From a virus (Duplodnaviria > Caudoviricetes): a stretch of DNA of 64,000 nucleotides. Shown here piece after piece: positions 22,437 through 25,788 of the stretch (position 1 is the first letter of the stretch; every line of letters starts with the position of its first letter). Both the position numbers and the translations under genes were made by a program. The stretch lies in IMG/VR virus record IMGVR_UViG_2869891414_000007, positions 1 to 64,000 of that record; one strand, 5' to 3'. The notes under the pieces are model-generated. The model ran no database searches and was not told where the DNA came from. It saw only the letters and a program-made list of their open reading frames with translations.

Positions 22437-22830
22437 CCCGGAACGGCTGAAAATGTTTGTTGATGGCGGGCGCATTGTCTCAACGTTAGCCCCGTCGCTC
22501 TCTTTTGAAAATCAATATACGCTGACGCTGTTTATTGAGGATTTTCCCAGTGATGTTGATTACCTCTTTGTGCCGATTCTGGCATGGCTGCGCGAGCATC
22601 AACCGGACATCATGGCAACAGAAGAGAAGCGCCGCACCGGCTTTATTCATAAGGTCGATGTGATTAGCGATGTGCTGAGTGATATCCGTATCGACCTGCA
22701 ACTGACTGAGCGGGCCATTGTGAAAGAGGTTGACGGTGCATTGCATGTTAACCACGCGCTGGAACCGGCGTGGCCGGGTACGCCAACACGACCAACAGCC
22801 ATCTACTTTAACGGCGAAGTGATCCCATGA
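22375..22830 (+). CDS. R: Tail completion protein gpR
   Basis: MLKPKLLR...SLSFENQYTL...WLREHQPD. Confidence 0.92.
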   Translation: MLKPKLLRQALTDSLQLFQTNPERLKMFVDGGRIVSTLAPSLSFENQYTLTLFIEDFPSDVDYLFVPILAWLREHQPDIMATEEKRRTGFIHKVDVISDVLSDIRIDLQLTERAIVKEVDGALHVNHALEPAWPGTPTRPTAIYFNGEVIP

Positions 22831-23276
22831 ATGAGCTGAAGCCCTTTGATGATGCATTGGCCGGGCTGATTGCCAGTCTCACGCCCAAGGCGCGCAAAGC
22901 GCTGGCGGTGACGGTTGCAAAGCGCCTGCGGGCCAGTCAGCAACAACGCATCAAACGCCAGCAAGCGCCCGACGGCACCCCGTATGCCGCGCGTAAATCT
23001 CAACCGCTGCGTAAACCCAAGGGTCGGATTAAGCGGGAAATGTTCGCCAAGTTGCGCACCGCGCGCTATATGAAAGCCAACAGTAGCTCTGATGAGGCGG
23101 TGGTTGAGTTTGCCGGGCGCGTGGAACGAATGGCGGCAGTGCATCATTTTGGCCTGCGTGACCGCCCAAACGTATACAGCAAAGATGTGCAGTATGATGA
23201 AAGGCCGTTGTTGGGGTTTGATAAGAAACTAATTGATAGTATAGAAAAAATTATTACATCCTCTTTTACAAAGTAA
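22827..23276 (+). CDS. S: Tail completion protein gpS
   Basis: QQRIKRQQAPDGTPYAARK; HHFGL; RPLLGF. Confidence 0.92.
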   Translation: MNELKPFDDALAGLIASLTPKARKALAVTVAKRLRASQQQRIKRQQAPDGTPYAARKSQPLRKPKGRIKREMFAKLRTARYMKANSSSDEAVVEFAGRVERMAAVHHFGLRDRPNVYSKDVQYDERPLLGFDKKLIDSIEKIITSSFTK

Positions 23277-23313
23277 TATTGTGACTTTTATTGTTCGCTA
23301 CCAGCGAATTTAG

Positions 23314-23342
23314 TTGACCATTTGCGAACTTTGCTCTATTCT
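23314..23342 (+). promoter_or_regulatory. Sigma70-like promoter of the retron locus
   Basis: TTGACC-N17-TATTCT. Confidence 0.55.
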
Positions 23343-23348
23343 AAATTT

Positions 23349-23625
23349 AACGTTACTGAAGAGAGAATCCGCCGGTTAGACCTGAGTAGTGATATTTACT
23401 ACTTGTGGAGGATTTAGATCCTCTGTTTTTTTGCGCTGCCCTTGTGCTGTCCACGGTGCTGCTACGAAGCTTCCCATGGCATGTTGTAGTGTATAGGCGT
23501 ACTGCGTACTGATCGTGTTGGCGACATCACGATCAGATTGAATAGGGTTCACTGCCAAAAACTCTCATTTCCTGATTATGGCGACCTAACAGCAATTCTG
23601 CTGTTAGTTATCAGGAATAAAATTT
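23349..23625 (+). ncRNA. Candidate retron ncRNA (msr-msd) / structured leader
   Basis: Hairpins AGTAGT/ACTACT, GAGGAT/ATCCTC, CTGATCGTG/CACGATCAG and CTAACAGCA/TGCTGTTAG upstream of a retron-type RT operon; boundaries approximate. Confidence 0.6.
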
Positions 23626-23790
23626 ATGAAAAATAGTAACGCGTTTTGGCAGGCACTTAAGAAGAATGACACTAAAAAGAAGAAGCGGAAGCAAAAGCAG
23701 AAGCTTTGGAATATTGTAAAAGTACTGGTGAGAGCCGGTCTGTGTGTTTACAAACTCCTTAACTTCTTCTTTGGTGATAATGATGCTTAA
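23626..23790 (+). CDS. Unannotated 54-aa basic/amphipathic small protein, candidate retron toxin
   Basis: MKNSNAFWQALKKNDTKKKKRKQKQKLWNIVKVLVRAGLCVYKLLNFFFGDNDA; AGGA SD upstream. Confidence 0.65.
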   Translation: MKNSNAFWQALKKNDTKKKKRKQKQKLWNIVKVLVRAGLCVYKLLNFFFGDNDA

Positions 23791-23821
23791 GTGTGCCCTA
23801 CCTTCAGTAAAGAGGTGATTT

Positions 23822-24139
23822 ATGATTAACCGAGCATTAAAAACCATCAGGCTATTCCATAACATAAAACAATCTGAACTTGCGGATAAGCTATGTATTT
23901 CAAAATCATACTTATCAGAGCTTGAATCAGGAAAAAAAACAGTCTCATTTGATATATTAGAAAAATATTCTAATAATTTTGACATTCCAGTTTCATCACT
24001 GGTTTTTTTTGCTGAACGAATTAATGAACCGGGTAAAGATACAATTCCTGAAAAATTCAAAACTGTTTTTGCAGATAAAATACTTAAGATAATGGAATGG
24101 AGCATAGCGAGAGATGGCGAAAAAGAAAGGGAGAATTAA
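23822..24139 (+). CDS. XRE-family HTH protein, retron accessory
   Basis: IKQSELADKLCISKSYLSELESGKK HTH; overlaps the RT start. Confidence 0.85.
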   Translation: MINRALKTIRLFHNIKQSELADKLCISKSYLSELESGKKTVSFDILEKYSNNFDIPVSSLVFFAERINEPGKDTIPEKFKTVFADKILKIMEWSIARDGEKEREN

Positions 24140-25046
24140 TACTAAAGGCAAGTCTTATAGTATTAATGATAGCGCTTTATTCAATATTCAGAGTAAAAAC
24201 AAGCTTGCGGAAGTATTACTGACAAACTTAGATAACATAAAAAGCTTATTATCTAATGACAATTATATTGTTTTTGATAATACTAATGAAGATGGTAAAA
24301 AGCGGACTATTCAAACCCCATCAGATAAACTTAATGTTGTGCATACAAGAATAGCGAGTTTACTATGCCGTATAACTCAACCAGAATATGTCCATTCAGG
24401 AATAAAAAATAAATCTAATGTATCCAATGCCAGAAAACATGTAGGTACACACCCTGTATTAACGTCTGATATACGCTCATTTTTTCCTTCGACATCTAAG
24501 CGCCAAGTCTTCAATTTTTTTAATAGGAAATTGAAGTGCGCTGCTGATGTATCAGACCTCATGGCGGAATTGTGTACGTATGCGAACCATATACCTACAG
24601 GCAGTCGAATAAGTATGCCTTTAGCATTCTGGGCAAACTATGACATGTTTAATGAAATGAACATAATTTCAAATAAATTAAATATAACAATGACTGTTTA
24701 TGTTGATGATATTACTTTTTCTGGCAATGCTGTTAATAGACTGTTTCTTCATAAATGCAAGAGAATAGTGGAAAAGAATGGCCATGTTTTACATCCAAAG
24801 AAAACAGCCCTCTACTCTGCTAAAGAGCCTAAGACCATTACAGGTGTTATTGTTCATGAAAATGAAATTAAAGTAAGAAATTTACATTACAAGAAAATTT
24901 ATTTTGATTTAGATGCGTGGAAGAAAACTGACGACGCCATAGAAAAAGAAAACTTAAAAAACAAGGTTCTTGGTCGAATGCATTCTCTTTCTACTATTAA
25001 TGAAAAATTCAAAGATAAAGCACGAAGCTTTCGGTCCATTGATTAG
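24114..25046 (+). CDS. Retron-type reverse transcriptase
   Basis: NARKH (NAxxH), SDIRSFFPS, PTGSRIS, YVDD and ITG (VTG-like) motifs. Confidence 0.9.
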   Translation: MAKKKGRINTKGKSYSINDSALFNIQSKNKLAEVLLTNLDNIKSLLSNDNYIVFDNTNEDGKKRTIQTPSDKLNVVHTRIASLLCRITQPEYVHSGIKNKSNVSNARKHVGTHPVLTSDIRSFFPSTSKRQVFNFFNRKLKCAADVSDLMAELCTYANHIPTGSRISMPLAFWANYDMFNEMNIISNKLNITMTVYVDDITFSGNAVNRLFLHKCKRIVEKNGHVLHPKKTALYSAKEPKTITGVIVHENEIKVRNLHYKKIYFDLDAWKKTDDAIEKENLKNKVLGRMHSLSTINEKFKDKARSFRSID

Positions 25047-25082
25047 CTGCAAAACTTTTCATAACAAAAGTCTTGTTGATGT

Positions 25083-25100
25083 TGTGTAGTACCTGATACA
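25083..25100. promoter_or_regulatory. Ogr box at the V late promoter
   Basis: TGT-N12-ACA, 46 bp upstream of V. Confidence 0.7.
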
Positions 25101-25146
25101 ACCCCTCATTATTGAAGCAAGTAACTATTAGTTACATGCTTCCCTC

Positions 25147-25788
25147 ATGAATACTCAAACCCAAATCACTGAAATTCTGCGCCTGCTGCGCAACCTTATC
25201 CGTATTGGTACGGTGGCTGAGGTCGATCTCGACCAAGCCCTGTGCCGTGTGGCGACAGGGGACAATACCACCGGCTGGTTAAACTGGCTGACGCTTCGCG
25301 CCGGTCAATCACGTTCATGGTGGGCACCGTCTGAGGGCGAACAGGTATTGATATTGTCCCTCGGTGGCGAACTCGACACCGGCTTTGTGTTGCCGGGCAT
25401 TTTCTCTGATGACTTTCCGCCACCGTCGGCCTCGGCCAATGGCTTGTATATCGCTTTTCCTGACGGTGCCACGTTGCACTATGAGCCGGAAAGCGGCGAG
25501 TTGCTGGCAGATGGAATCAAAACAGCGGTTATCAATGCCAGTGAATCGGTGAATGTTACCGCCCCCAATATCACCTGTACCGCCTCGGTGAAAATCCTTT
25601 TAGACACGCCCGAAGTTGAATGCACTAACAACCTGACCACCGCCACCTTGAATGTGATCCAAGGCGGCAAGATGAGTGGTGATATTGAGCACTCAGGCGG
25701 CCAGTTCTCATCCAATGGCGTGGTAGTCGATAAGCATGACCATGGCGGTGTGTTGCGCGGCGGGGATTATACGGAGGGGATTAAATGA
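25147..25788 (+). CDS. V: Baseplate spike gpV
   Basis: NLIRIGTV, WWAPSEGEQV, C-terminal HDHGGV. Confidence 0.93.
   Translation: MNTQTQITEILRLLRNLIRIGTVAEVDLDQALCRVATGDNTTGWLNWLTLRAGQSRSWWAPSEGEQVLILSLGGELDTGFVLPGIFSDDFPPPSASANGLYIAFPDGATLHYEPESGELLADGIKTAVINASESVNVTAPNITCTASVKILLDTPEVECTNNLTTATLNVIQGGKMSGDIEHSGGQFSSNGVVVDKHDHGGVLRGGDYTEGIK

Follow-up and report, generated by a model that had tools for sequence, protein, structure and literature searches.

A P2-like Yersinia prophage carries an intact type VI retron, related to Retron-Vpa2, between its tail genes gpS and gpV

Gene content and insertion site of the cassette

In the window analyzed here (64,000 nucleotides, positions 1 to 64,000 of IMG/VR record IMGVR_UViG_2869891414_000007), an AT-rich retron cassette is placed between two tail genes of a P2-like Yersinia prophage, gpS (matched by Phage_tail_S, E 1.7e-33) and gpV (matched by Phage_base_V and Phage_spike). 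Three genes are encoded on the plus strand, all with intact open reading frames: a conserved small protein of 54 aa (SP, 23626..23790), which has syntenic homologues, an XRE-type HTH protein of 105 aa (23822..24139) and a retron reverse transcriptase (RT) of 310 aa with an intact catalytic YVDD motif (24114..25046). The HTH gene overlaps the RT gene by 26 nt. A sigma-70-type promoter and a structured leader precede the genes, and the GC content is 30-40% over 23200-25150 versus 55-62% in the structural genes on either side. The first-pass annotation, made from the sequence alone, had reported an own promoter, about 280 nt of structured leader, a 54-aa ORF, an XRE HTH gene overlapping an RT with the motifs NAxxH, YVDD and ITG, and AT-rich DNA among GC-richer structural genes in the S-V slot of the tail operon; every one of these features was recovered.

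The homology breaks and the drop in GC content mark an imported segment at ~23218..25075 (plus strand). Homology to the sister phage vB_YenM_201.16, which carries an empty site with an S-V gap of 73 nt, stops at ~23218 and restarts at ~25075. Besides the retron itself, the segment holds the final ~19 codons of gpS and a short remnant similar to the old gpS end. Its position is the Orf30 slot of P2, with the gpS stop on one side and the pV activator site on the other. In the P2 record this interval is occupied by a terminator and the non-essential Orf30, and in other Peduoviridae unrelated genes are found in the slot. Outside the retron, in the flank, a TGT-N12-ACA sequence (25083..25100, plus strand) probably serves as activator site for the late promoter of V. 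It is centred 55.5 nt upstream of the V start (25147), and this geometry agrees with that annotated for the pV activator site and the transcription start of V in the P2 record. Sequence homologous to this activator region is kept in the empty-site phage vB_YenM_201.16. In contrast to P2, no terminator lies between the cassette and the late O operon.

None of the type VI loci retrieved for comparison is located between gpS and gpV homologues. The defence hotspot of P2-like phages described by Rousset et al. (2022; PMC9122126) adjoins cos and not the Orf30 slot, and the text of that paper does not mention gpS, gpV or Orf30. The 81-kb provirus record carries, outside the window, also a type IV retron (Ec48/Eco6-like), which shares with the type VI cassette the retron RT clade 3 and the carriage by a prophage. 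It differs in its RT of 415 aa and its two-TM effector partner, and it has neither an HTH gene nor an SP within the RNA.

The proteins group with type VI retrons

The RT matched the PADLOC profile RT_VI over profile positions 1-278 of 279 (E 3.4e-104, 346 bits). The next-best profile, RT_III-A, scored 137 bits and thus more than 200 bits lower, and the top matches are all retron RTs. The motifs general to retrons (YxDD, NAxxH, VTG) are present as Y196-V-D-D199, N105-A-R-K-H109 and I242-T-G244. No variation was found across 30 homologues at N105, A106, H109, V197, D198, D199, T243 and G244; residue 242 is I here and V in most of them. The HTH protein, of the Cro/C1 type, was matched by PADLOC HTH_VI (E 6e-36) and Pfam HTH_3 (E 1.9e-12) and is strongly conserved (58% mean column identity).

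SP has a Lys/Arg-rich N-terminal half (net charge +10), an amphipathic hydrophobic helix at residues 27-49 and an acidic tail, and was modelled as a single long helix (residues 3-50, pLDDT 77). Syntenic homologues of 47-56 aa are encoded upstream of the HTH gene in ~30 related loci, among them homologues with 33-45% identity; the family alignment comprises 29 loci including Vpa2. Because the SPs of Vpa2 and Sen3 are toxic, SP is predicted to be a toxic effector.

The gene order SP-HTH-RT is kept in ~30 loci with an RT identity of 40-55%. In a quick RT tree rooted with one type IV RT, the window RT and the landmark for Vpa2 (locus L086) fell into a 32-row clade with an SH-aLRT support of 98. 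L086 bears the residues named for Retron-Vpa2 (SP K15, I39, F43 and F45, HTH R7) and an SP of 55 aa; its RT motif is YVDD versus YADD as written in the Vpa2 paper. Both the PADLOC result and the clustering with the Vpa2 landmark place the RT within retron clade 3, on its type VI branch. The longest SP frame in the window has 54 aa, so that the SP of ~79 aa with a ~25-residue N-terminal extension that characterizes the cl2075 (Sen3) lineage is not found here.

Since RT_VI is the best profile, HTH_VI is matched, SP is conserved and a covarying ncRNA is located upstream, the sequence data support membership in type VI of the Mestre et al. 2020 classification, and the tree puts the RT with Retron-Vpa2; the element is intact and lies in a prophage. 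On first inspection a type VI-like retron had been proposed and read as an intact, prophage-encoded defence system; the tree and the PADLOC profiles bear out the retron assignment. The accompanying view of the class as little studied is outdated, as mechanistic preprints on Retron-Vpa2 (Zhang et al., 2025, bioRxiv 10.1101/2025.10.22.683967) and on Retron-Sen3 from Salmonella enterica, cl2075 (Garcia-Rodriguez et al., 2026, bioRxiv 10.64898/2026.04.27.721009) exist. The element was also announced as a new member: it is new to its class, but the cassette as such is already in GenBank, annotated as retron-type RT in Yersinia phage vB_YenM_56.17. It is a new member of a class whose mechanism was solved in 2025-2026 and not a new kind of system.

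A conserved promoter and a candidate operator

The promoter (23314..23342, plus strand) consists of TTGACC (23314-23319), a 17-nt spacer and TATTCT (23337-23342). In 26 of the 31 related loci compared, a promoter with at least 8 of 12 matches keeps this spacing to the RNA. Transcription would start near 23349.

Directly upstream of the -35 box lies the palindrome GTTCGC-TACCA-GCGAA (23293..23308, plus strand), and a third half-site, GCGAAC, is found at 23324-23329 within the -35/-10 spacer. This palindrome occurs at the equivalent position in 19 of 31 aligned loci. Among the 29 loci scorable for both traits, presence of this palindrome and the HTH helix SKS[YF]LSE agree in all 29: it is present in 17 loci, exactly those with SKS[YF]LSE, and loci with other HTH helices, Vpa2 included, have different palindromes or none. 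Palindrome and helix each change five times on the tree, and an independent-pairs test yields one pair on well-supported branches and five on all branches, too few for significance. From this pattern we infer that the palindrome is a candidate operator for the HTH protein, which may have a second role as DNA-binding autorepressor acting at GTTCGC-N5-GCGAAC. At the RNA level the palindrome forms a short hairpin with a U-rich stretch behind it and could alternatively be an insulating terminator rather than an operator.

Architecture of the hybrid RNA

The predicted hybrid RNA (hyRNA; 23349..23812, plus strand, ~460 nt, putative ends) is supported by fold and covariation and comprises msr-msd, a riboregulator and the SP coding sequence. 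Its leader of ~277 nt, from ~23349 to the SP start, folds better than shuffled sequences (z -3.6 to -3.9), as does the hyRNA as a whole (z -3.9). Covariation, scored on a single alignment that takes in Vpa2, amounted to 0.421 versus 0.212 in shuffles (0 of 500 reach the observed score), and did not exceed 0.227 when the partners were slid. In this alignment 89-99% of cells are paired in helices F, E, I, SL1, SL2 and GAGAG/CUCUC.

At the 5' end, the terminal arm UUACUGAAG (23353..23361, plus strand) can pair with CUUCAGUAA at 23802-23810 in an a1/a2-like wrap-around of nine perfect pairs (-11.7 kcal/mol). As a family feature this helix was dropped, since the pairing is not cognate-specific (permutation p 0.24); when partners for the tail behind SP were sought by unconstrained duplex formation, z was near 0 in most loci. 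The adjacent GAGAG box (23361..23365, plus strand) pairs with CUCUC at 23562-23566, with 89% of cells paired and two-sided changes in four of the five pairs. This helix crosses helices E and F and would thus form a pseudoknot or belong to an alternative conformer. The GAGAG box is followed by a 5' box, CCGCC (23369..23373, plus strand; UCGCC in most relatives), with complementarity to a 7-nt direct repeat, UGGCGAC, in each of its two copies. Complementarity between box and repeat extends over at least four of five positions in all 31 loci and is full in 20 of them, and box variants match their repeats: UCACC occurs with GGUGA, and UCGUC with GACGA in Vpa2.

Two msr-like stem-loops are located at 23383..23424 (plus strand), SL1 (23383-89/23399-405; 92.5% of cells paired) and SL2 (23407-12/23419-24; 98.7%), both with many compensatory changes. 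The putative msd, the template for the msDNA, spans 23432..23537 (plus strand) according to the fold and the alignment with the Vpa2 hairpin; its boundaries, drawn by analogy, are provisional. It consists of a variable long hairpin (23432-23508) and hairpin D (23509-17/23528-36), both seen in the fold, and the loop of hairpin D carries repeat 1 at 23519-23525. Hairpin D aligns with the repeat-bearing hairpin of Vpa2, and 29 of the 31 loci have the repeat core in the region of hairpin D.

The central node and riboregulator (23544..23660, plus strand) are supported by covariation and by pairing of the SP Shine-Dalgarno sequence (SD). Helix E (23544-47 with 23796-99), helix F (23552-60 with 23644-52, within SP codons 7-9) and helix I (23653-58 with 23789-94) are 92-95% paired and show compensatory changes. 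The RBS hairpin (23569-76 with 23610-17) buries the SD of SP, AGGA at 23613-16, and the riboregulator contains repeat 2 (23579-85) and an apical hairpin (23586-94/23599-607). Pairing probability of the SP SD is 0.99 in the window element; over 29 loci the mean is 0.84 for SP versus 0.61 for the HTH gene (p 0.0006). For hairpins D, G and H, alignment pairing is 37-57%, the variable stems being misaligned, and they are supported by single-sequence folds and the SD-pairing test. An Rfam scan of 22800-25400 with E up to 10 returned no retron msr family and no intron or DGR RNA; snoRNA-like and thermometer matches in this interval were at chance level and were rejected.

The 5' box, with the sequence that the msDNA would later present, may serve to hold the riboregulator or to close the msd arm. 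Such a three-partner switch of 5' box, repeats and msDNA is not spelled out in the available parts of the Vpa2 and Sen3 preprints. The joint reading, with the HTH protein as autorepressor and the 5' box as third partner of the repeat/msDNA switch, is plausible but somewhat doubtful.

A Vpa2-type switch is the favoured mechanism

Retron-Vpa2 of Vibrio parahaemolyticus shares with the window element the gene order hyRNA (msr-msd and SP)-HTH-RT. The msr-msd joined to SP, the sequestered RBS and the two 7-nt repeats of Vpa2-type hyRNAs are all found in the predicted transcript. In both systems the hyRNA has ~460-470 nt with node helices and buries the RBS and start of SP, and of the two 7-nt direct repeats one is placed in an msd loop and the other in the riboregulator. 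The SPs, 54 aa here and 55 aa in Vpa2, are both basic at the N-terminus and contain a hydrophobic helix in their C-terminal part. Identity to Vpa2 is modest (RT 48%, HTH 40%, SP 25%), HTH R7 of Vpa2 is aligned to K7, the repeat is UGGCGAC here and GGACGAA in Vpa2, and the promoter palindrome and the HTH recognition helix are different. Whereas Vpa2 adjoins hipA and rpoD on the chromosome, the window element resides on a P2-like phage. The U-run that most relatives have after the CCCC box is missing here, which counts against a Vpa2-like reading, as do the modest identities, the terminal pairing that lacks cognate specificity across the family, the weak alignment support for hairpins D, G and H and the YVDD of the landmark RT where the paper has YADD.

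We consider it probable, with real room for doubt, that the element is a Vpa2-type retron moron in the P2 Orf30 slot, in which a riboregulator opened by msDNA would release the SP toxin. The RNA architecture, RBS sequestration, repeats, family, intactness and insertion site are read directly from the window and its relatives, whereas complex formation, triggering, switching by msDNA and toxicity are carried over from Vpa2. The element's own sigma-70 promoter would drive the ~460-nt hybrid RNA with the msr-msd template and the SP gene, whose Shine-Dalgarno sequence and first codons would be buried in the conserved helices. In the resting cell RT, HTH protein and hybrid RNA would be complexed, reverse transcription held down and SP left untranslated. 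Recombination functions of an incoming phage, an SSAP with exonuclease and/or a RecBCD inhibitor, would act as trigger, upon which msDNA copied from ~23432-23537 would build up. The loop at its 5' end, carrying the complement of UGGCGAC, would pair with repeat 2 in the riboregulator, open the RBS hairpin and allow SP to be made, so that growth of the infected cell would stop (abortive infection). No RecT, ERF or YqaJ genes were found in the 81-kb provirus record, consistent with a phage that leaves its own retron untriggered.

Sen3 follows another logic, and the mechanism therefore varies within type VI, which also counts against a Vpa2-like reading. According to the available part of the preprint, msDNA and SP are made constitutively in Sen3, control is post-translational via RecBCD surveillance and the HTH protein is the antitoxin (bioRxiv 10.64898/2026.04.27.721009). 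A type VI retron working in this way, with loss of RecBCD freeing the toxin post-translationally, is an unlikely alternative for the window element; in its favour, Sen3 is a type VI retron of an enterobacterial host with identical gene order. As described there, the SP of Sen3 is likewise preceded by a structured ncRNA of ~280 nt, its RBS is sequestered and long-range pairing extends beyond its stop. In the available parts of both preprints, loss of HTH is toxic in Sen3 and in Vpa2 (bioRxiv 10.64898/2026.04.27.721009; 10.1101/2025.10.22.683967), and the strong conservation of the window HTH fits an antitoxin. The described Sen3 SP, however, has 79 aa with the ~25-residue extension typical of cl2075, whereas the SP of the window falls among the Vpa2-clade SPs of 47-56 aa, and the buried RBS and two repeats, the basis of a translational switch, are conserved here.

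Less probable still is a retron by descent without an anti-phage role in this host, be it silenced cargo (e.g. by H-NS), a prophage addiction module or a decaying element. The AT-rich foreign DNA and the toxin-antitoxin character of HTH and SP in Sen3 would suit it, and with no terminator between it and the late O operon, unlike in P2, its expression may depend on the cycle of the phage. Against this, every part is intact and under visible constraint, several Yersinia species and an inducible phage retain the cassette at 99.8-100% identity, and both studied type VI relatives as well as Retron-Eco12 defend against phages. Eco12, a type VI retron of E. coli said in the available part of the Vpa2 preprint to be phylogenetically near Vpa2, protects against lambda vir without detectable msDNA (bioRxiv 10.1101/2025.10.22.683967). 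In type VI, msDNA may be visible only once triggered. An RT of another class (group II intron, DGR, Abi/UG or CRISPR-associated), to which the weak generic Pfam RVT_1 match (31 bits) might point, is highly improbable given the RT_VI score, the NAxxH and (V/I)TG motifs, the HTH_VI partner, the covarying msr-like stem-loops and the failure to detect any intron, DGR or other RNA family.

Distribution and significance

In Yersinia phage vB_YenM_56.17 the cassette is 99.8% identical, versus 95.8% over the whole R-W stretch; the paper on this phage does not discuss the retron cassette. The cassette is present in many Yersinia genomes. A total of 311 contigs contain exactly this SP sequence, and the RT cluster comprises 39 Yersinia members. 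A megablast search across 5,426 complete E. coli genomes gave no near-identical DNA. Persistence of the cassette and its higher conservation than the flanks fit selection or recent spread. The Mestre 2020 catalogue reportedly contains 158 type VI entries.

Knowledge of the class itself is unchanged by the find. With vB_YenM_56.17 it offers a cultured and inducible temperate phage that naturally carries a type VI retron and that, together with the empty-site phage vB_YenM_201.16, forms a ready pair for studying the effect of the retron on its carrier phage. The comparison of 31 loci leads to predictions on an operator, on the pairing of msDNA with the riboregulator and on a third complementary box. 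The hybrid-RNA design of the Vpa2 type is extended to phages of Enterobacterales, and the P2 Orf30 slot, a seam of two late operons, is predicted to be able to house a defence system.

The AT-rich cassette is almost certainly a type VI retron

In the P2-like prophage of the window, the tail genes gpS (22827-23276, Pfam Phage_tail_S) and gpV (25147-25788, Phage_base_V and Phage_spike) flank a stretch with a GC content of 30-40%, compared to 55-62% in the surroundings. Encoded here on the plus strand are a sigma-70-like promoter (TTGACC-17-TATTCT, 23314-23342), a leader of ~277 nt without a long ORF, a 54-aa ORF (small protein, SP; 23626-23790), an XRE-type HTH gene (105 aa, 23822-24139) and a reverse transcriptase (RT) gene (310 aa, 24114-25046), whose first 26 nt are shared with the HTH gene. 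The RT motifs NARKH, YVDD and ITG are invariant in 30 homologues except for V/I at residue 242. Since these features and motifs were found in the window, the first-pass annotation, which had listed promoter, leader, small ORF, HTH-RT overlap, motifs and AT-richness, was correct in every item.

In comparison with PADLOC profiles the RT matched RT_VI over its full length (E 3.4e-104, 346 bits; second-best profile 137 bits) and the HTH protein matched HTH_VI (E 6e-36), bearing out the type VI retron that had been proposed for 23314-25046. The small ORF had no matching profile in the PADLOC search, and the Rfam scan of the leader returned nothing. We are nearly certain that the cassette is an intact type VI retron.

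The same cassette (1870 nt, 99.8%) is present at the same S-V position in vB_YenM_56.17, a Yersinia phage of the Peduoviridae that was induced from Y. enterocolitica, and its annotation there reads hypothetical protein, transcriptional regulator and retron-type RNA-directed DNA polymerase; the paper describing this phage does not mention it. Y. aldovae ATCC 35236 carries the cassette with an RT identity of 100%, 39 members make up the RT cluster, one of them from Y. mollaretii, and 311 contigs contain the exact SP sequence. The closest RTs beyond this cluster show merely 53-55% identity, and an RT_VI match (E up to 1e-70) was obtained in five of 151 species genomes sampled from the family. A quick maximum-likelihood tree of 69 RTs placed the window RT in a 32-row clade (SH-aLRT 98) together with Retron-Vpa2 and all short-SP loci, nearest to rows from Rahnella and Hafnia; the sister clade has SPs of 54-65 aa. 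In another fetched locus (L091 1216-2397, genome G085) a small ORF of 67 aa stands directly before a type VI RT (RT_VI E 2e-85) and an intervening HTH gene is absent, a variant architecture.

The predicted hybrid RNA has the architecture of Retron-Vpa2

In Retron-Vpa2, a hybrid RNA (hyRNA) of ~470 nt combines msr-msd with a translationally repressed 55-aa toxic SP, and RT, HTH and hyRNA assemble into a complex; msDNA cannot be detected before phage recombination proteins (lambda Beta+Exo) cause it to accumulate, and the msDNA then derepresses SP translation, probably via a 7-nt repeat common to msd loop and riboregulator (Zhang et al., 2025; 10.1101/2025.10.22.683967). In V. parahaemolyticus, one locus (L086 2001-2960) has an SP of 55 aa with K15, I39, F43 and F45 and an HTH protein with R7. 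Since the Vpa2 paper mutated these residues, the locus is, judged by sequence, Vpa2 or a near-identical copy; its RT motif is YVDD versus YADD as written in the preprint, though all named SP and HTH residues match. Identity to the window is 48% for the RT, 40% for the HTH protein and 25% for the SP.

We aligned 31 upstream regions, Vpa2 included, and counted pairs for the structure defined on the window. The covariation score was 0.421 versus 0.212 in shuffles (0/500 reached 0.421) and at most 0.227 with partners slid; 74.8% of cells were paired versus 44-50% with partners slid. The alignment supports well, all on the plus strand, SL1 (23383-89/23399-405), SL2 (23407-12/23419-24), helix E (AGGG 23544-47 with CCCU 23796-99), helix F (CUGCCAAAA 23552-60 with UUUUGGCAG 23644-52, which are SP codons 7-9) and helix I (23653-58 with 23789-94), which encloses the remainder of the SP gene together with its stop. 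Also well supported is GAGAG (23361-65) with CUCUC (23562-66), which crosses E and F and is therefore a pseudoknot or alternative conformer. The RBS hairpin of UUCCUGAU (23569-76) and AUCAGGAA (23610-17) buries the SP Shine-Dalgarno (SD) sequence, whose pairing probability is 0.99 in the window and on average 0.84 over 29 loci; that of the HTH SD in the same transcripts is lower (0.61, p 0.0006).

There are two copies of UGGCGAC, the first in the hairpin-D loop (23519-25), the second within the riboregulator (23579-85). The core of the latter recurs in the hairpin-D region in 29 of the 31 loci and changes in step, with GGUGA in six loci and GACGA in Vpa2. By analogy, a putative msd would span ~23432-23537, its 3' hairpin D giving the essential 5' stem-loop of the msDNA. 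A 5' box (23369-73), which reads UCGCC in most loci, shows complementarity to both repeats and varies with them; its sequence is identical to that of the msDNA segment by which the riboregulator is proposed to be opened. With its three arms around a node, its repeats and its sequestered RBS and start, the window RNA matches the Vpa2 architecture.

In the window, the RNA as a whole is closed by a perfect 9-bp pairing (23353-61 with 23802-10); across loci this pairing was not cognate-specific (p 0.24). The pairing stands in place of a U-run which follows the CCCC box at the hyRNA 3' end in most relatives (alignment columns 725-745) and is missing from the window (23796-23812); this run could be a hyRNA terminator or a pairing partner for an A-rich 5' arm. 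SL2 of the msr and the U7 that follows it in the window (together in 23405-23432) were flagged as terminator-like in our scan, and relatives have only ~4 U at this point; transcription may be attenuated here, inside the hyRNA.

The small ORF is a gene

About 30 loci (RT identity 40-55%) contain a 47-56-aa ORF ending 30-60 nt before the HTH start. The encoded proteins share a short polar start, often with W/Q-Q, a Lys/Arg-rich stretch, a W, an amphipathic hydrophobic helix and an acidic tail. On this sequence pattern, the 54-aa ORF is a real gene. The window SP was modelled as a single long helix (residues 3-50, pLDDT 77), with a net charge of +10 in residues 1-26 and a hydrophobic, amphipathic segment in residues 27-49.

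A candidate operator abuts the promoter

The palindrome GTTCGC-N5-GCGAA(C) (23293-23308) abuts the -35 box, and GCGAAC lies between -35 and -10 (23324-29). The palindrome occupies this position in 19 of 31 aligned loci. Among the 29 loci scored for both traits it is present in 17, exactly those with the HTH recognition helix SKS[YF]LSE; the remaining 12 have other helices and other palindromes or none, and Vpa2 carries AAGTTGCA-N6-TGCAACTT over its own promoter. This concordance (29/29, with five changes of each trait on the tree) makes an HTH operator suggestive but not proven, because only one independent pair falls on well-supported branches. The palindrome could also be a small terminator hairpin. 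The words operator, palindrome and autoregulation are absent from the text of the Vpa2 and Sen3 preprints.

The retron lies between two late operons

In the sister phage vB_YenM_201.16 the S-V gap is only 73 nt, and homology to the window stops within gpS at ~23218 and restarts at ~25075; the cassette therefore supplies a new AT-rich gpS end. The same interval of the P2 record comprises the terminator of the O operon, the pV activator site and Orf30, which is non-essential, with V transcription starting at the V start codon. The window retains TGT-N12-ACA (25083-25100) with its centre 55.5 nt upstream of the V ATG, as it is in P2, and the retron thus sits at the seam between two late operons. 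Unlike P2, with its annotated O-operon terminator after S, the window showed no terminator-like site after gpS (23277-23313) or the RT gene (25047-25082) in our scan, so that late transcription of the carrier may read into and through the retron.

Unrelated cargo occupies this slot in other Peduoviridae: a 246-aa hypothetical protein in phage R18C (L095 974-1714) and a protein of 347 aa that weakly matches LmuA (E 2e-6) in Klebsiella phage ST147-VIM1phi7.1 (L088 1275-2318), whose genome includes an RT gene at another position. The P2 hotspot reported by Rousset et al. (2022; PMC9122126) is a different locus, adjoining cos. Among the other type VI loci that we fetched, none is flanked by homologues of gpS and gpV. 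Between the window phage and vB_YenM_56.17 the cassette is 99.8% identical versus 95.8% for the R-W stretch including it; the flanks are therefore less alike, which points, at the sequence level, to recent exchange or strong constraint.

Beyond the window end, the same 81-kb provirus record contains a second retron (G000:C1:66760-68732; L003 524-2496) whose 415-aa RT (PADLOC RT_IV E 3.5e-91) precedes a protein of 242 aa (2TM_IV E 9.6e-18). The system is of type IV (Ec48/Eco6-like), and the record thus holds two clade-3 retrons on neighbouring prophages. A third, weak RT-like match (G000:C1:74602-74832; RT_VI profile positions 141-218, E 2.5e-7) falls within a minus-strand open frame of 452 aa.

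Control of the small protein

Derepression of SP translation by msDNA, as in Vpa2, is the reading we favour for the window retron, with some reserve. Retron-Sen3, of the cl2075 lineage with a 79-aa SP, makes msDNA and SP constitutively, has the HTH protein as antitoxin and responds to loss of RecBCD function (Garcia-Rodriguez et al., 2026; 10.64898/2026.04.27.721009). Such constitutive toxin-antitoxin control is unlikely here, and the 54-aa frame excludes the Sen3 form of the SP. That the retron has no defence role in this host seems improbable. A search of the provirus record for RecT, ERF and YqaJ genes found none, which fits a carrier without the trigger class. Taken together, the retron of the first-pass annotation was correctly found and well read, and the element is an ordinary though attractive member of a known, now mechanistically described class.
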